Below, piece after piece: positions 347-59,710 of a stretch of DNA of 64,000 nucleotides. The notes beneath the pieces are model-generated. The model had not been told where the DNA came from. It worked only from the letters and a program-made list of their open reading frames with translations, and did no database searches. The stretch's first letter is position 1, and each line of letters begins with the position of its first letter. The stretch comes from Escherichia phage T5. The translations under genes were made by a program, and so were the position numbers. Location of the stretch: sequence record NC_005859.1; one strand, written 5' to 3'.

Positions 347-775
347 ATGTTTAATAATGTATTCTCTAAAGAAGCTAATCCAATATTGGTTAATTTTTGG
401 CGTACTCTTCCAGCCAACCTGTACAATGAGGCTATTAATGCTCTAAAAATATGGTGTGAGAATAATGAAATCTCCTTTGCTTTTAAAGGCGAGATTGAAG
501 AAGCTCCCTGTATTGGTTTAATTGTGCAGGTAGAGGATGGTCTTGAAGAGATTGTCGGCTGGAAAGAGTTAGATGAAATGGGCTTGGTTTTTGCATTAAA
601 CTATAAGCTGTTTATGCCTAATAAACACCGTATTGTTGTTAACTATAAAACCAGTGAATCTCCTGGCTTTCAAGTTAATGAACATTACGGTTGGTCTTAC
701 TCACCGGAAGAAGTAAATGATGGTATCCAAAAACTTCGTCGTTTTGGTTATCAAATTCCGGGTTTAACTGCCTAA
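347..775 (+). CDS. hypothetical protein, tandem paralog A
   Basis: 142-aa ORF; shares PCIG...W.EL..MGL..ALN..LF.P...RFGY.IPGL pattern with next ORF. Confidence 0.6.
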   Translation: MFNNVFSKEANPILVNFWRTLPANLYNEAINALKIWCENNEISFAFKGEIEEAPCIGLIVQVEDGLEEIVGWKELDEMGLVFALNYKLFMPNKHRIVVNYKTSESPGFQVNEHYGWSYSPEEVNDGIQKLRRFGYQIPGLTA

Positions 776-784
776 GGAGGCACA

Positions 785-1177
785 ATGGAACAAATATATT
801 GGCGTCAGATTGATCCTAGTTTGGTGAAGTGTGCAGAGAAGCTGCTACAACGTTGGTTGGGGGTAAGACAAGCCTCCTTCACTTTTCCGGAGCAGCAAAT
901 AGACGATCCCTGTATTGGTGTTTTCCTATCAGGCTACGCTGGGGAATGGGAATTGGATTGGAATGAATTGTCTGCTATGGGTTTAATTGTTGCACTAAAT
1001 TTCTCTTTGTTCCATCCACGTGGTTTGGCTATATGTCGTGTGCCTGATGATGGTTGTTCGCCCCATCTTTTACGGGTGGAAGATGATATTTGGGAGTACA
1101 CTCCAGATACTCTCAAAGAAGCTAAAGAACAGTTAAACCGTGTTGGGATCTATGTTCCAGGCCTGAATGATGAATGA
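785..1177 (+). CDS. hypothetical protein, tandem paralog B
   Basis: 130-aa ORF; RBS aaggagg upstream; clear similarity to 347..775 product. Confidence 0.6.
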   Translation: MEQIYWRQIDPSLVKCAEKLLQRWLGVRQASFTFPEQQIDDPCIGVFLSGYAGEWELDWNELSAMGLIVALNFSLFHPRGLAICRVPDDGCSPHLLRVEDDIWEYTPDTLKEAKEQLNRVGIYVPGLNDE

Positions 1178-5341: not shown

Positions 5342-5371
5342 AGATTCATAAATTTGAGAGAGGAGTTAAAT

Positions 5372-6366: not shown

Positions 6367-6423
6367 ATTCTCATAGTTTGAAAGAACTATTCTGTTTTAT
6401 TCTTAATTAAGGAAATATAAAAT

Positions 6424-10358: not shown

Positions 10359-11867
10359 ATGCTCCTTCCCCTTTTTGCATTTAGAAGGCACGAAAGCGTG
10401 CAAAGGAGAATGACCTTGTTTAACGTGCAAGCTGTAGTGTTGAAGATGCTTCTAGCTTCCGAACAGAAGCAAATAGCATTGGAAACATTCTCAAAACTGC
10501 ATAAAGATCATTTTAATGACGCTTTCTCCTCAATTTACCAAGCCGTCCAGAATTATTATAAAAAATATAACACAATGCCGTCCATTGACGCACTGATGCT
10601 TGAGGCTAATAGGAACGCCCGCCTTTCTCAAGCTCTAGTCGTTTTAGCTAACACTCAAATTCCAGAAGTTAGCATGGAACAGGCACTTGAAGTCCTAGAG
10701 GCCGAGTATACACAGGATTTATTCCTGAAGCTTCTAGAAACAGACGTGCTTCAAGATTTAACAATGCTGGATCAGGGAGAAATTCTTAACCGAGTTGCCT
10801 CCCTTCACTTAAAATTAGAAGAGAAAGTAACGAATACTGGAAAAGTATTCAACGCAGATAACATGCGTATTTTCCAGAGAGAAGAAGATACCAAACTGAA
10901 CTTAATCGCTCTTGGTATTTGTAATGAGTTCGACGCTCAAATTGGTTTAGCTCGCACAGAAACGTTACTGCTTGGTGGTTGGCGTGGTACTGGTAAATCC
11001 ATTATCTGTTCAAACATACAGGTTGGAGATATTGCTCCATACTTCTCAATTGAGATGAAAGAACATGAAGTATTTAGACGTAATCTAGCCATGTTAGCTG
11101 GTGTATCAGCACTAGCAATGCGAAATAATACTCTAGAAGGTGCAGCTCTGTTGAGATTAGCCAGAACTAGAGCTAGAATGTTTAACGGTGGTGAAGAGCT
11201 TTTCGATAACTTCGTTAAACAATACACAATGGCTAAGATGAGTGATTTCTACGATATGGAAAGTAAGCTAATAGAAGGATATGAGCTACATACTCCTATG
11301 ATTATTGTTTATGATCCTGAGCTGTCTATTACAACAGTTGACGTAGAATTAAATAAATTAGTTGCTAGATATGGGGATAAAGTTACAGTAGCTTTACTTG
11401 ACTATATTAACCAAACCCGACTTCCAGATTCTAAAACCATTGATATGTATGACTGGAAAGAACAGATGGTTGTTAGCTCGTCTTTCAAATCCATCTGCCA
11501 GAAACATAACGTGGCTGGTGTAGCTCCTTACCAGATTGATCAAGATGGTAGAACACGTATGTCAAAAGGGATTCTTGATTCCGCAGACATGGCTGCTAAT
11601 CTTAATGCTGCAAAAGCTGATAATGGTCAAGGTGCTATTATGTTTGACTTCGTTAAGACCCGTTCTTCTGATAGCGTGAAGTTTATGCCTAAAATGAACT
11701 GGGAAACCCTGCGGATGGATAACACTACCAACCTAGCAATGGAAGATATATCTCAAATGGAAGCTGAGTTCGTTATCCCTATTGAGAAGGATAAGCCGGC
11801 TCAATCTAAACGTGCTAAGAAAGACAAAGCTGAAAATTCAACAGGTGAACAGGCCAGCGATATATGA
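10359..11867 (+). CDS. DnaB-like replicative helicase
   Basis: Walker A GGWRGTGKS; RecA-like C-terminal half; exact start uncertain (10359 has ggagg RBS, alternatives 10410/10416). Confidence 0.75.
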   Translation: MLLPLFAFRRHESVQRRMTLFNVQAVVLKMLLASEQKQIALETFSKLHKDHFNDAFSSIYQAVQNYYKKYNTMPSIDALMLEANRNARLSQALVVLANTQIPEVSMEQALEVLEAEYTQDLFLKLLETDVLQDLTMLDQGEILNRVASLHLKLEEKVTNTGKVFNADNMRIFQREEDTKLNLIALGICNEFDAQIGLARTETLLLGGWRGTGKSIICSNIQVGDIAPYFSIEMKEHEVFRRNLAMLAGVSALAMRNNTLEGAALLRLARTRARMFNGGEELFDNFVKQYTMAKMSDFYDMESKLIEGYELHTPMIIVYDPELSITTVDVELNKLVARYGDKVTVALLDYINQTRLPDSKTIDMYDWKEQMVVSSSFKSICQKHNVAGVAPYQIDQDGRTRMSKGILDSADMAANLNAAKADNGQGAIMFDFVKTRSSDSVKFMPKMNWETLRMDNTTNLAMEDISQMEAEFVIPIEKDKPAQSKRAKKDKAENSTGEQASDI

Positions 11868-24084: not shown

Positions 24085-24116
24085 AAAATAAAGGGGCCTA
24101 ATGACCCCTCTTTTTT
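24085..24116. terminator. bidirectional terminator-like hairpin at convergent junction
   Basis: aggggcc..gacccct hairpin flanked by A-run on one side and T-run on the other; directly 3' of tail fibre gene. Confidence 0.55.
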
Positions 24117-27100
24117 ACATACCTAATTTATCCTCAATTGCAGATAACCTCGCTTCAAATCCTTTTGCGATAAAAAGGTTTAACTCTTCAAGGCGGAATG
24201 AGTAATGATCGCCAGCCGGGATTGTTTTGTAGATCGGGTTTTCAGTTCCATCTTCATTTGCAGGGCCGTATTCAGAAACAACCGTATGTTCATCCCATTT
24301 GTCATAGCAGATGAAACCATATTTGAACGGATCAAGCCCAAAACTTTCCATGATCTCAATTGCACGCTGCACGGTCAAACCGCAGTGTTCGCGAATATCA
24401 TTCATGTCAGCTTGCTCCTTCCACGTCCAAAACCCAATCTCCTTCGCAATAGCTTTGGCCGCTTCGGTTTCAGGATCGCTCATGGCTCGAACATCGTTCT
24501 TCAATCTAGCATCGGAGGTGTTAATTGTACCATTTACGGCGTAAACCTGCTTAACCCTACCAGATCCCCAGCCTAAGTTATATCTGTTATCTGCCATCGG
24601 CATTAACGTTCCGTTATGGTCAACCCCCCACCGTGGGAGACGAGAGATGCTTCCAGACTCACATGTCTCCAACACAACCTGTGTTGGCGTTGAAGTTGGA
24701 CCCCACCCCCCAGCGGACTTAATTGCTACACTACCACGCATTGAGTCGAACTTCTCTCCATCATGACCAGACGCACCAATATAGAAAGTCGAACCGGGTT
24801 GTGTAGCGCCAATATATCGCGTCGTATCTGCTAGACTACCATCACACCACATAGCTCGAATAGCTGGCGCCGAGGCCCCAGAACCACGTGGCGCAATCAA
24901 GTCAATCTCTGGTGCCTGGGGTGCAACAATTTTCAGCCCTCGTCCATCCTGTATACTCGGGGCGTTAAACCTAGGCACAGCAGCATTTAGTGTTTCAATG
25001 CTACGCACCAACCCAAGATCTGAGTGCATAGCTCCATCTGGAACTAGCCAAAGATCTCCATTATCTGACAGTCTGAATGCCGGAACCCTATCGCTAATCG
25101 TCTTACCTTTAGGAGTGACAAGTAAACGAATCCACCCCCCGTGATTGGTTGCCGATGTATCGCCAGCCCCCAGGAAATGCAATGCTGCATTGCTATGTTC
25201 AGTATATGTAGAACCTAACCACGGGCGTGAACCATAACCACCTAAAAGCTGGTTGTTCTTCGTTACGCTATTGGACGCTCCGCGAGTGTAGTTATGGAAC
25301 ACGGCAGAACCTCCAGCCGTATTCTCAATACCAAAAGAACACTCCGTTGCGCTATCGCCGATAAAGTTAACGCCAATCCCGGTTGTCGCGGTTGTCTCCT
25401 TCAGTGGTAAGCTCTGTGACGCGGTAACATCAATCTCTTTGCTATTGACACCACCCTTAACAACCAAATCACCATTTGGTGAAAGAATCATCTGACCTTC
25501 CGATATCCCATCACCATTTGGTCGAAAATATATCATTTGACCAGCTTTTGCGCTAATGATTGGAGAGCCTGCATTGTTGCAACGAATTGCCGCACCTTGA
25601 CCAAATGAGATTTTTGTGTCTCCAGCGCTGGCCGATGTGCAAGAAATTTCAACCTGGTTATCTAGCGACGTTGCCCCCGCTGGACGAAGCTGCAATAGTC
25701 TATCAGTTCCGCCAGAGGAAGATAAAATCAATCTACCTTCACCACCTTCACGAACTATAGAGCCGCGACCAATTACGATCCCCTTATCAGACGATGGCAT
25801 TTTTGATGTAGCGCCGCCACCAACACCGAGGTTTCCGTTCAGAACGCCAGCGCCACCAACCGAAAGCTCATTACCAGACAGGCGACCTGATACGCTCATT
25901 GACTTAACACTCACATCTTGGTTCATGCCGCTGACAACAGACTCACGCCAGGCTGACCACGTGCCATTGCTACAATAACGTGTAAACTCACGATTTAAGT
26001 CAGTGCCAAAAAGTCGCTGGCGGTTAGTGAAATCAGTGTCACCCACTTTGCGGATTGACTCGACGTAAAGAATGAAGTTACCACCTATTCCGCTTGGCTT
26101 GTTGGTAATGTTGTTGCCGCCACCAGCACTAACGCACTGGTAAACACGAATCGACCCGGGATCGCTTTTCTTAATCATCAAGGAGTTAAGATCAAGTTCC
26201 TGGTCACTAATGTTTTTAGCCTCCCAAGGTCCGGCGAATCCATTAGTAAAATCCATTAGCCCAGCAACAGAGAAACCAGCATCCATCATCTTGCGCGTTA
26301 CAATCTTGCTGTTTTGTTTATGATCAGGATTCTCACCAAAAGCTAGATCTCCATCAATATCAATACCTAGAAGCTTTGCGTTCATGTTATTGAGCTTGAA
26401 TCCAACCGACACATTAGAATCTGAGTCGCGCACTAACATGATGGGCGTATGTTGCTTACCACTGACTCGCAGGTTTGTAGCAGCTGTGTTTGTGTCATCG
26501 TTGGAAAATTCAGCAGTCCGAGATGAGATCTTATAACTGATCTTTGCATCTTTCGCTTCGATTCGCCCATCGTGACGCACGATAAAATCTCCAGTACTGG
26601 TGCCGTCGGAAGTCTTAGCCCTGATGTGGATTTCGCCAAGTGAGCCATTGTTTGGTGGTGACCAAATAACACCGCGCTCGCCTCCGTCGTTGTTCATGAA
26701 CCACAGATGGGCGTTTCCTTGTGTTGATTTTAACCTGATAGACGGCGTTTCTTTCCGTATATCAAGATCACCTGACATAACATCGCCTGCTTTTTTCACC
26801 TGCGCATCGTTAGTTACGTTGCCAAGTCCAACGTCCGATTTCGACGGTTTGTTTGCCGTGCCGTAGAGAGTGTTGGCGTAAACAATGTCACTTGCAAGGT
26901 TGCGGTCAGTGGTTGCTAGCACCTTAACGATTCCAGTGTTGTACTGCACGTTAATTGCAGCATGGGTATCTCCGCAATGAGAGTAAAAGCCAGAACCGTG
27001 ATCGTTAATATCAACGTTTGCACCTGATTCGCGAGCCGCTCGCCAGTATTGACCGCCATTAGCTTTAAGCTTGTTGATCAAGTCTACGTTGCTCTGCACG

Positions 27101-28305
27101 GAGCTATAGGAAAGACCGTTACCGCCAAGACCGAAAGCGCCTACAAGCATAGCATTTTCAAGGCCCAAGTCTGCCTTAGTAGGCTTATTTACCTGGTCGT
27201 AAATCCTTGCGGCTAGGCTTTCAATAAATCCTGATGGTTGAGTATCTTGACTAACAAATCCTTCTGGAATGTATAATTCAGTCCTGCCAGTCTGTGCCAG
27301 TACTGCAACCCTTGTTTCTTTAATAAAGGCTCGCTGATAGCACCAGACTTCGAAATAGCCATCACCTTCTACAAGGCCGTAACGCAGTTGGTTATCCCAG
27401 GCAAGGTTTGGTGAACCGAGTCGGCGAACACTTAAAAATTTAGTTATATTTTCACTGGTTACCCCTCTTGCATCGTTAAGACCGCGAGCAGATATCTCTA
27501 CAAAGTCAATATTACCGTAACTTGAACCGTAGTTACCGCCATTTGTAATCATTAGCGTTAGGTGACAGCTTACTGCACCTGGATCGGTAAGTTTAGCTAT
27601 CTTGACGTAAACGCTATTGTTGTTTGTACCGACGGGCCAGTCGTATTGCGTTACTGGGCTTACGAGTTCACTTGCCATATCGAGATATTCTTTCGCCTTA
27701 TTCTCTGACGTTTTGGCATTGGTTTCGCTTGTTTTTGCTGCTGTCTCGCTTTTCTTTGCATTGGTTTCTGATGTTTTTGCTGCTGTGGCAGAGTTTGCAG
27801 CCGCTGTTTTTGATGCATCCGCCGCCTGAGCGCTATTACCAGCATTTGTTTCAGATGTTTTTGCGGCCCTCGCGGAATTTTCTGCCGCCGTTGCAAAGGA
27901 AGATGCGCTACTAGCACTTGATGCTGCGTTCGTTTCTGAAGTTTTTGCAGCATTTTTACTATTATTGGCGTTAGTCTCGGAAGTTTTTGCAGCTTTAGCA
28001 CTATTAGCAGAAGCAGTAGCAGAGGAGGCAGACTGAGTTGCAGATTGCTGAGAAGATGTTGCGGAAATTTCTGCCTCATTCTCAGAATCTTTGGCATTTA
28101 ACTCTGATTGCTTAGCATTAATTTCAGACTGCTTAGCTGCAGGGCCGGATGCTTTAGAAGACTCTATCGCAGAGGTTACGTCTGCAGCAGTAATAGAGCT
28201 AATGGAATTAGAAAGCACAACTGTATACTTAGGATATTTACTTGCAGTTATACTATTCTGGTCCATAGTGACCATTTGCTGTAGAATTATTTTAGTTATA
28301 GCCAT
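24115..28305 (-). CDS. ltf: L-shaped tail fibre protein (pb1-like) with C-terminal intramolecular chaperone domain
   Basis: 1396 aa, same length as T5 pb1; N-terminal AKTSETNA-type repeats; C-terminal ...AMSDPETEAAKAIAKEIGFWTWKE... chaperone/autoprotease-like segment. Confidence 0.85.
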   Translation of the reverse strand: MAITKIILQQMVTMDQNSITASKYPKYTVVLSNSISSITAADVTSAIESSKASGPAAKQSEINAKQSELNAKDSENEAEISATSSQQSATQSASSATASANSAKAAKTSETNANNSKNAAKTSETNAASSASSASSFATAAENSARAAKTSETNAGNSAQAADASKTAAANSATAAKTSETNAKKSETAAKTSETNAKTSENKAKEYLDMASELVSPVTQYDWPVGTNNNSVYVKIAKLTDPGAVSCHLTLMITNGGNYGSSYGNIDFVEISARGLNDARGVTSENITKFLSVRRLGSPNLAWDNQLRYGLVEGDGYFEVWCYQRAFIKETRVAVLAQTGRTELYIPEGFVSQDTQPSGFIESLAARIYDQVNKPTKADLGLENAMLVGAFGLGGNGLSYSSVQSNVDLINKLKANGGQYWRAARESGANVDINDHGSGFYSHCGDTHAAINVQYNTGIVKVLATTDRNLASDIVYANTLYGTANKPSKSDVGLGNVTNDAQVKKAGDVMSGDLDIRKETPSIRLKSTQGNAHLWFMNNDGGERGVIWSPPNNGSLGEIHIRAKTSDGTSTGDFIVRHDGRIEAKDAKISYKISSRTAEFSNDDTNTAATNLRVSGKQHTPIMLVRDSDSNVSVGFKLNNMNAKLLGIDIDGDLAFGENPDHKQNSKIVTRKMMDAGFSVAGLMDFTNGFAGPWEAKNISDQELDLNSLMIKKSDPGSIRVYQCVSAGGGNNITNKPSGIGGNFILYVESIRKVGDTDFTNRQRLFGTDLNREFTRYCSNGTWSAWRESVVSGMNQDVSVKSMSVSGRLSGNELSVGGAGVLNGNLGVGGGATSKMPSSDKGIVIGRGSIVREGGEGRLILSSSGGTDRLLQLRPAGATSLDNQVEISCTSASAGDTKISFGQGAAIRCNNAGSPIISAKAGQMIYFRPNGDGISEGQMILSPNGDLVVKGGVNSKEIDVTASQSLPLKETTATTGIGVNFIGDSATECSFGIENTAGGSAVFHNYTRGASNSVTKNNQLLGGYGSRPWLGSTYTEHSNAALHFLGAGDTSATNHGGWIRLLVTPKGKTISDRVPAFRLSDNGDLWLVPDGAMHSDLGLVRSIETLNAAVPRFNAPSIQDGRGLKIVAPQAPEIDLIAPRGSGASAPAIRAMWCDGSLADTTRYIGATQPGSTFYIGASGHDGEKFDSMRGSVAIKSAGGWGPTSTPTQVVLETCESGSISRLPRWGVDHNGTLMPMADNRYNLGWGSGRVKQVYAVNGTINTSDARLKNDVRAMSDPETEAAKAIAKEIGFWTWKEQADMNDIREHCGLTVQRAIEIMESFGLDPFKYGFICYDKWDEHTVVSEYGPANEDGTENPIYKTIPAGDHYSFRLEELNLFIAKGFEARLSAIEDKLGM
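27660..28100 (-). repeat. in-frame tandem coding repeats in tail fibre N-terminus
   Basis: reiterated gcattggtttc.gatgtttttgc.gctgt DNA units encoding AAKTSETNA-like peptide repeats. Confidence 0.7.
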
Positions 28306-28568
28306 TATTGAGTTACTCCATCACTAATATAAACCTTGCCTTCCATAATACGGAAAGAACTAGCAGCACTACCAACAGCTGTTCTAGTAATAATTACATC
28401 ATAGTATCCAGCCAATCTCTGTCTAGGGTTATATCTATCTCTTTCTTTGGATGCTTTGGAAGCAATAGTAGTTACAGCACTAACAGGTAGGCTTATAGAT
28501 GCTACACCTTGTGCAGCATCAACAATAGCTGTAGTAAAAGATGCTACAGTTTCAGCCCCATCTTCCAA
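28305..28568 (-). CDS. collar protein-like, C-terminal fragment (frame 2 of an apparently split gene)
   Basis: 87-aa ORF with weak TTG start; overlaps the end of 28544..28729 in a different frame. Confidence 0.4.
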
Positions 28569-28729
28569 GCTGCTTTTAATACTCCCTCTAAGAGAGAGAA
28601 ATCAGTAAGATCTACTGGTTTGGATGTAGATGGGTAAACACTATCATCTACGTCCATAAATTGCATAAGTAAACCATAAGGTACGTTCTCGTCTACCACT
28701 AAATCAATAACTCTATTTTCTGTACTCAT
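28544..28729 (-). CDS. collar protein-like, N-terminal fragment
   Basis: 61-aa ORF with ATG start; with the next ORF would make ~140 aa if fused. Confidence 0.4.
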
Positions 28730-28733
28730 TATT

Positions 28734-30800
28734 TTACCTTATATGGATATACCCGTTTTGCAGGTCTATCTTCATTTTGTAGGATCCCTCTGGGTTAGAG
28801 GATAGTGCTGCTGCACGATCATATATAATATTTACACCAATTTGTGATAAGAAAGCATTGTTAGCAACAATTTTACTAGCAGTTACCGTGCCATTAACTA
28901 TCATATCTCCGTGTAAAACCATTGCAGGGCTAGTCCACGCCGAACCATTCCACTGTCTAGTAAAAGCTGTCCCAGGAGCACCACTCTTATATTCAGTTAA
29001 TACGTCATATTTAACAGGACCACTGCCGAAATTAGATGTAAAAAATGAATTAGCTTGTGAGTCATTCCATGCTGTTAAATTAGCAATAGCAAGAGAATAC
29101 ATTCCAGGACCACGTTGTCCTGTAGCCCCCGGCCTGCCATCAACACCTTCTGTACCACTCCATTGAACTACGTCAGACCAACTAGTTCCCGATACTAATT
29201 GATTAGTAACTGGGTCCAGAGTACCTGTAGAACAGTAAATATTCTGAGTATTAGATGTTCTATTTGGTGGAGTTTTAGACCAACCAGAAGGTGGGTATGC
29301 AGGACTTGTTGGTTTAGCAGGTAATGAAGTACCTATAATATAGATAAATACTGTTTGCTTCCCTTGTATACCCGTCTGTATATCAATATCACCATTTGGG
29401 GTACCAATTACAACCTCACTAGAGATCCTAAGTATATTACCATCATAACGAATATACTGTGTAGCATTACCAATATCTAATTTTGGTTTAGCAGTAACAT
29501 TATCCATGCCCATCCAGATACCGGATTTTGTATCGCCCCAAGTTTTACCCTGTGTATAAATTGCTGGGTTATCTTGACCGGTTAAATTAGTCATGACAAA
29601 GTTAGCAGCATTAATAGTTTTAGTTATTACACTCCCATCAACGTTAACTATCTTTTTAACAGGGTCAAAGGATATTGGTGCTTTTCCTTCTGCGTCTAGA
29701 AGACCTATATTAATAGCACCAGTTGCAGCGTCAATTAAGAAAGTTTGTTTCCAGGTAGATCCATCTTTAATTTTACCCTTAATGTACGCATAGTTTACTT
29801 CGATACCAGTTTCATTAACAAAACTATTGTCTAATGGTGTACTCTCATTTAATATAAATGTCTGTACTGCGGAATCAGTAACATCTTGAGCATCTGGTCC
29901 CCAGGCAATAGATGACACTTTAAATTTATGCTCTACTTTCCACGGGAATGATATAATTGTTGCCGACTGAGCAGCCCCCACGTTGATTTTTTGTGCCTTA
30001 GTCCATCCAGTTCTTACAAACTCTGCCGAATCTATATAAGATAGAACGAACTCACGAACATTAGCACCCGCACCCCTATTCCAGTCCCACTGCACACGTA
30101 AATCATAACGCTCTTTACCGTCTGCTATGCGCGCAGCTTTAAACACAATATTAATAGGAGCCGCAGGAGGTACAAAGTTATATCTAACTTCAAAGACATT
30201 AGGATATTCATAGTATCCTGATGAATCAATAGTAACACCGTCTGGTAGGCTTATTTGACCAGAAATTCTTACCTTATAGGATCCAATTGGCACACCACCA
30301 AACATAATAGTAGGCATTAGTGCACCAACGTAATATTTAACCCATGGATTATTGGCATTAGAATTATCTTTTAATTCTATAGTGCAATAATCGGCCTCCC
30401 CTGTAGTATCTATATAAACTATTGGTGCTCCAACACCAACATCTACTGGTTCTGACTCGCATCGAGCACCAGTGATTCTAGGTGCTGATTTCATTTTAAA
30501 AGTTTGCTTATCAGATAGATTAATTCCTATCTGTGCATTAAGAAGTTCAGAGTCTATTATGGAATCATAAAATGCACCCTGAACTTCATAAGTTGTTGTA
30601 GGTTTTAAGTTATTAATAGTTACAGAGAAAGTATCAATACCCGTGAAATCCCTACGAGTAACGTTGCTGCCTTCTTTAAGCCAAAATGATCTACCTATAA
30701 CGTCGTAATCAGAGTAGATAGAATGCTGGATATACGCCAACGTATATCCAGTTAAGACGCTATTTAGAACCATTTTAGCTGGTGCATTATTTGAAATCAT
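28734..30800 (-). CDS. baseplate/tail tip protein pb4-like
   Basis: 688 aa, same length as T5 pb4; beta-rich, fibronectin/Ig-like repeats. Confidence 0.75.
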
Positions 30801-59191: not shown

Positions 59192-59710
59192 TTAATTGAC
59201 AATTCCAAATTCAGCTTTTTTAGTTTCTACCCATAATAATAACTCTTGTAAATCATAACCTGATTTACTAACACTTTTGTTACTAGTAGGATCTTTAACT
59301 ATAGCGCGCAAATAGTTTCTTCCGTTATTATCAACTCTAGAACCATTATAATAGATATGCTTAGGCAACTTATTAGCACGCTTATAATCTTTCTTGTTAT
59401 TCATATTCTGCTTATGGTCTACTAAGCGAAGATTATTAATGTTATTATTAGCACGGTTACGATCATTATGATCGATTGTTAGATTGCTATCAATCTCACC
59501 ATTAAATAATACCCATATTATTCTATGCACTGCGTATTGTTCGCCTGCTAACTTTACTCGATAGTAACCTGTGTTACTATAATGCCCTGCAATATCACCC
59601 ACCTTACTATTACCTTTCTGTACTTTCCATCTTAGAAATGATGGGGATGTTTCATCATAATAAAAGTTATCATTAGCAAGCGAATAATCTATATCTTTAA
59701 ATAGACCCAT
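59192..59710 (-). CDS. HNH homing endonuclease with AP2-like domain
   Basis: 172 aa; AVHRIIW...IDHNDRNRANNNINNLR...HKQN HNH motif; third member of the family at 4556 and 11864. Confidence 0.7.
   Translation of the reverse strand: MGLFKDIDYSLANDNFYYDETSPSFLRWKVQKGNSKVGDIAGHYSNTGYYRVKLAGEQYAVHRIIWVLFNGEIDSNLTIDHNDRNRANNNINNLRLVDHKQNMNNKKDYKRANKLPKHIYYNGSRVDNNGRNYLRAIVKDPTSNKSVSKSGYDLQELLLWVETKKAEFGIVN

Follow-up and report, generated by a model that had tools for sequence, protein, structure and literature searches.

The collar protein gene p132 is interrupted by a two-nucleotide insertion in the reference genome record of phage T5, probably through an error in the record

The collar protein p132 of Escherichia phage T5 (UniProt COLLR_BPT5) is an immunoglobulin (Ig)-like protein, 12 copies of which encircle the p140 ring as a collar; onto this collar, each of the three pb1 L-shaped fibers is grafted by its N-terminus (Linares et al. 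2023, PMC10038345). Residues 1 to 140 of p132 are modeled in the cryo-electron microscopy entries 7QG9, 7ZHJ, 7ZN2, and 7ZQB. Another tequintavirus, phage DT57C, possesses an orthologue, LtfC (PDB ID: 8HQZ chain Q, E = 5.7e-66), a homologous collar/fiber-attachment protein of 140 amino acids (aa) that is uninterrupted in that phage. Here, we describe the p132 gene in the right-hand 64 kb (64,000 nucleotides (nt); the window in what follows) of the T5 genome record NC_005859/AY543070, which has been termed the 'Moscow' T5 sequence by Davison (bioRxiv 10.1101/866236). In this record, the gene occupies positions 28305 to 28729 on the minus strand, in the same place between pb4 and pb1 as in other T5 sequences, and is split by a frameshift. 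We estimate at roughly 70% the probability that the two nucleotides responsible are a sequencing or compilation artefact.

In the record, the locus consists of two minus-strand open reading frames (ORFs) that share 25 nt at 28544 to 28568: a 61-aa upstream ORF that starts at ATG (28544–28729; T5.136, YP_006964.1, AAQ92752.1) and a downstream ORF of 87 aa with a TTG start (28305–28568; T5.135, YP_006963.1, AAS77179.1). A prior sequence-only reading of this DNA had reported the pair, and the ORF list bears out its coordinates, lengths, start codons, overlap, and location between pb4 and the fiber gene. Removal of 2 nt joins the pair into a single frame, whose 140-aa product is 100% identical over residues 1 to 140 to PDB ID 7qg9 chain R, 'L-shaped tail fiber protein p132', so that the pair cannot be put down to chance. 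The same reading had proposed that the two ORFs are pieces of a single collar protein, p132, of about 140 aa, and both parts of this proposal hold: p132 is 140 aa long by annotation and in the structures, and upon alignment with T5 p132, the gene is identical apart from the 2 extra nt. Other T5 records show a single 423-nt gene here, named T5p132, ORF125, or orf140aa, and the T5p132 entry carries the annotation '15kDa minor tail protein; identified by N-terminal sequencing and PAGE-SDS'. The consensus T5 sequence matches the collar chain R of 7qg9, and the window departs from that sequence by the frameshift only. It is p132, the collar protein gene of phage T5, that is interrupted here.

The two annotated products divide the protein between them. 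The 61-aa product comprises p132 residues 1 to 46 followed by 15 unrelated, out-of-frame residues, and translation from the upstream ATG runs for 61 codons and then meets a series of stops; the 87-aa ORF corresponds to residues 54 to 140, and its stop overlaps the pb1 ATG. The GGAG nearest to the 87-aa ORF ends 13 nt 5' of the TTG, which is poor Shine-Dalgarno spacing. The Pfam profile PF23926 (LtfC-like beta-sandwich) covers the whole domain of the repaired protein (56.4 bits against a cut-off of 27, profile positions 1–100), whereas the 87-aa fragment scores 33 bits over profile positions 40 to 100 only, and a Pfam search with the 61-aa fragment gave no match. The single uninterrupted ORF of about 140 aa that characterizes LtfC is thus missing from the window as written and is restored once the 2 nt are removed. 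As written, NC_005859 encodes no functional collar protein.

The lesion is a 2-nt insertion in a (TC)4 run at 28592 to 28599 on the minus strand (TCTCTCTC on the gene strand, GAGAGAGA on the plus strand). In the numbering of NC_005859, the run lies at ~86,342 to 86,349. On the gene strand, the context is GATT-TCTCTCTC-TTAGAG in the window and GATT-TCTCTC-TTAGAG in other T5 sequences. Three independent T5 sequences were used as comparators, T5st0 (AY692264), ATCC 11303-B5 (AY587007), and T5st(H) (AY303687), and in the alignment with these, the two extra bases in the TC run are the sole difference within the gene. By megablast, AY692264 and AY587007 are 99.7% identical to the window over the locus and ~100% identical over 25 kb, and they differ from it in length by exactly 2 nt; the gene measures 425 nt here and 423 nt in all other T5 sequences. 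Frame is lost after codon 46 of p132, where the protein is elsewhere continuous and where NC_005859 breaks it into the fragments T5.136 and T5.135. The sequence-only reading had described the event as a +1 frameshift at 28540 to 28570, and both details need correction: the start of the second ORF lies 161 nt (2 mod 3) past that of the first, placing it in the −1/+2 frame, and the insertion precedes the overlap, on the gene strand, by 24 to 55 nt.

The interruption is peculiar to this record. All other T5 sequences read (TC)3, among them the independent Illumina-era Logan assemblies ERR10819250 and SRR33366766, and relatives have (TC)2 or (TC)3, always in frame. In a set of 24 contigs that were read, all encode the exact 140-aa protein without interruption. 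This protein occurs on 89 contigs in a collection of ~15 billion proteins; exact look-up of the 61-aa sequence in the same collection returned a single contig, as did that of the 87-aa sequence. A 24-mer spanning (TC)4 was found among viral contigs only in IMG/VR UViG_638276020, which is the T5 RefSeq genome itself. The (TC)4 allele was also absent from metagenome contigs; both negatives are of little weight, as the (TC)3 controls found just one metagenome and two viral contigs. Across the family, a single 140-aa ORF is present in six tequintaviruses (GEC_vB_N5, SE11, BF23, HASG4, Gostya9, and HildyBeyeler), one ORF occupies the locus in all eight aligned genomes, and each of the 841 phage records with a homologue matches at least 80% of the 140-aa protein by tblastn; in every match listed, down to T5-like phages of Vibrio and Pectobacterium, the homologue is a single unbroken piece. 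Relatives therefore do not carry two separate conserved genes here, the arrangement that the sequence-only reading had set against its own proposal.

The window preserves the surroundings of the gene. The pb4 central straight fiber gene (28734–30800, minus strand, 688 aa) lies upstream and the pb1 L-shaped tail fiber gene (24115–28305, minus strand, 1396 aa), intact in the window, lies downstream, with the p132 stop overlapping the pb1 start; the pb4-p132-pb1 order is the same in T5, SE11, BF23, HASG4, Gostya9, HildyBeyeler, and phiR2-01. Several features of the comparison sequences are recorded here in their own right. In Salmonella phage GEC_vB_N5 (MW006479.1), the intact 140-aa p132 gene at 522 to 944 is unannotated, and a 60-aa antisense ORF (759–941, minus strand), the counterpart of a spurious plus-strand ORF at 28308 to 28490 of the window, is annotated instead. 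In AY303687, 42 nt separate the end of the pb4 coding sequence from orf140aa where the others have 4 nt, and a 1-nt indel close to the 3' end of pb4 is thereby implied. Contigs of 267 to 1279 bp in NCBI records labeled Enterococcus faecalis also carry T5 p132 proteins, exact or partial (MFP9058592.1, MFP9048724.1, and others); these assemblies look to be contaminated with T5.

Over 63.5 kb, the window, AY587007, and AY692264 were compared three ways, which places the insertion among the other differences peculiar to each record. The window has nine private events, namely four single substitutions, a 1-nt deletion, a 15-nt deletion, and three events in 28143 to 28599. These three, a GGC/CAG block, a CG/GC swap, and the TC insertion, fall within ~450 bp, for which we estimate a chance of ~2% if the nine events were scattered uniformly. 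The GGC/CAG block (28143–28145, minus strand) alters pb1 codons 54 and 55 to Gly-Pro from the Ala-Ala of all other sequences and adjoins a PstI site at 28137 to 28142. The CG/GC swap (28179–28180, minus strand) alters pb1 codons 42 and 43 to Asp-Val from the Glu-Leu of all others and lies 2 nt from a PstI site at 28182 to 28187. Both the Ala-Ala and the Glu-Leu of pb1 are invariant in eight other genomes. There are nine PstI sites in the 64 kb, and we estimate the chance that both swaps would touch such sites at ~1e-4. Both swaps lie in the N-terminus of pb1, the part that inserts into the collar. AY303687 ends exactly at the PstI site at 28182, which indicates the use of PstI as a cloning boundary here, and its final ~20 bases (2140–2163) are garbled, unlike all other T5 sequences. 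The protein accessions of the two fragments come from different deposition series (AAQ92752 and AAS77179), which hints that separately deposited pieces may have been joined near the locus.

The stretch 28143 to 28599 of the record almost certainly contains technical errors, because double and triple swaps beside restriction sites are unexpected from natural mutation and expected from misreading at palindromes or fragment ends. The TC insertion is 410 nt from these two technical-looking discrepancies, and for this reason it is most simply taken as a third error of the same origin. Indel errors are frequent in records of the same period. AY587007 has 29 private differences, of which 11 are indel events (10 single-base), and itself looks error-prone; AY692264 has 12, all single substitutions. 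We noted in addition that AY587007 shows repeated A/C-before-A and T/G patterns and that it lacks sequence near window positions 59384 to 59445, which fits a report by Davison of terminal-repeat sequence missing there (bioRxiv 10.1101/866236).

The remaining private events of the window are dispersed. The four single substitutions are at 6398, 20967, 22558, and 45581, and the 1-nt deletion at 5366 is intergenic, just upstream of the D3 start codon. At 11024, 15 nt (TCAGCAATATTTGAA) are missing relative to both other T5 genomes; this deletion is in frame and sits in an ORF at 10359 to 11867 (plus strand) for a putative replicative DNA helicase (dnaB, D5 protein), which has 502 aa here and 507 aa in the others.

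Three causes had been put forward in the sequence-only reading, namely a sequencing indel, a genuine inactivating mutation, and recoding; the first two are both still plausible, and the third falls for want of a slippery heptamer, a significant downstream structure, and conservation. Programmed frameshifts are used in phage tail gene clusters elsewhere, as in lambda G/GT. The T5 pair shares with the lambda G/GT type of chaperone frameshifting the overlap of tail-cluster ORFs and the position of the second ORF in the −1 frame. We considered whether ribosomes that shift by −1 (or +2) in a programmed manner, or slippage during transcription of the TC run, could produce a collar protein of ~141 aa together with the 61-aa product. 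The only stretch in which a −1 shift could fuse the ORFs, with both frames open, is 61 nt long (28544–28604, minus strand) and is bounded by a TGA in the frame of the second ORF (28602–28604) and by the TAG of the first (28544–28546). A −1 slip of tRNA-Phe at U_UUC (28601) would yield p132 with one extra Leu, 141 aa in all, and an A_AAA_G site is also present within this stretch. However, a search of 28544 to 28604 for slippery heptamers of the form X_XXY_YYZ found none, only four X_XXY tetramers, and the downstream RNA was no different in folding from shuffled sequences (minimum free energy −31.4 kcal/mol, mean of the shuffles −27.1 kcal/mol, z = −1.37, with 18 of 200 shuffles folding as well). 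The two-frame arrangement is missing from the other T5 sequences and all aligned relatives, and hence it cannot be a conserved, selected signal; in contrast to lambda G/GT, the overlap of the T5 pair is made by the record-private 2-nt insertion itself. The virion protein of other T5 stocks is, moreover, the in-frame 140-aa product. Recoding is very improbable and effectively excluded; at most, trace spontaneous slippage might occur. We also considered a phase-variable repeat and rejected it, as the tract has only three to four units and relatives carry (TC)2 or (TC)3, all in frame.

The choice thus lies between an error in the record and a mutation in the phage that was sequenced. In the former case, (TC)3 would have been misread as (TC)4 in a locally poor stretch of a 2003–2004 Sanger record, the two extra bases would break the frame after codon 46 to give the annotated 61-aa and 87-aa fragments, and the real phage most likely encodes a normal 140-aa p132. 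In the latter, slippage would have expanded (TC)3 to (TC)4 in the sequenced stock and knocked out p132, leaving a viable T5 that is collarless and, since the L-shaped fibers could not attach once the collar was lost, also fiberless. Several observations weigh against an artefact, and the error is probable rather than proven. The insertion is exactly one repeat unit, and such a gain within a dinucleotide run is what replication slippage classically produces. Neither the L-shaped fibers nor p132 is needed for T5 to form plaques on laboratory E. coli (PMC11313276), and according to Saigo 1978, as cited in that paper, fiberless T5 does so. The TC insertion is the only private indel in the 64 kb that breaks an ORF, as a surviving, tolerated mutation would be, and the three-way comparison shows private frameshifts in none of the essential genes of the 64 kb. 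Fiberless laboratory T5 without p132 and pb1 has been observed: a 'laboratory-adapted fiberless T5' imaged in 2024 had no pb1 or p132 density (PMC11313276), and T5-hd1 has a truncated pb1 and has lost p132 from its virions (PMC10038345). Real frameshifts in the fiber module of laboratory T5 are also found among several independent Logan assemblies, with Illumina support: in SRR33366698 and SRR33366766, an A7 run at pb1 codon ~504 (~26796 in the window) is longer by one A, which divides pb1 into products of 512 and 887 aa, and a stock with this A7 to A8 frameshift, in current use in the laboratory, is presumably fiberless. Finally, the hairpin that the TC run can form has little stability (−1.8 to −3.1 kcal/mol), and shuffled sequences fold as well. 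We had entertained gel compression at a CTCTCTC/GAGGGAG hairpin as the source of a miscount and dropped it for the p132 site on these values; a notable DNA hairpin exists only at the 28179 site (−8.3 kcal/mol, z = −2.6). Against a genuine mutation stand the absence of the (TC)4 allele from any other T5 sequence or assembly, so that independent T5 sequences contradict a difference seen in one record only, and its co-location with two discrepancies within 450 bp that are not plausibly natural, being multi-base swaps at PstI sites that change invariant residues. The known fiberless stocks examined, moreover, are mutated in pb1, not p132: T5-hd1 and the A7 to A8 variants are likewise loss-of-function lesions of the fiber module in laboratory T5, but p132 is intact in the SRR33366698 and SRR33366766 assemblies that carry the pb1 frameshift, whereas in NC_005859 pb1 is intact and p132 is split. 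On balance, we regard a genuine inactivating mutation as possible but unlikely, and an error in the record as the probable explanation.

If the insertion were real, it would be an event of the same type as that in stf of lambda PaPa. There, a small frameshift cost a laboratory strain its dispensable side fibers, and the sequence of this strain was adopted as the reference (Hendrix and Duda 1992, as cited in PMC11313276). The lambda lesion has been verified biologically and hits the fiber, whereas the T5 split is read from sequence, hits the anchoring collar, and is probably an artefact. It is doubtful that the reference 'wild-type' T5 is a collarless, fiberless laboratory variant, the counterpart of lambda PaPa, and that loss of p132 is a second route, besides truncation of pb1, to the fiberless stocks that cryo-electron microscopy now shows.

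The split adds little new biology, as p132 is an already characterized structural protein and the interruption is private to one record. Its consequences lie in annotation. NC_005859, the RefSeq genome of the type tequintavirus, is a widely used reference for mapping and annotation, and it propagates p132 as two fragments, the 61-aa one now being named 'collar tail protein'. A literature search found no paper that discusses the split, and the supplements of one study that mapped to NC_005859 gave no match for the names T5.134 to T5.136 or for the coordinate string. A 2021 paper describes T5.136, there called 'pb2', as being without a counterpart in phage phiR2-01 (PMC8624392). That Yersinia phage (HE956708) encodes a 140-aa p132 orthologue, g126 (28322–28744), with 71% identity, and the statement that a counterpart is lacking may be a consequence of the annotation of the 61-aa fragment in NC_005859. 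Variant calling against NC_005859 should be expected to return a constant 2-bp 'deletion' at the TC run and the two block differences in pb1 for any normal T5 stock. Should the mutation prove real instead, the reference T5 would be a fiberless laboratory variant, which would matter for work on adsorption and host range.

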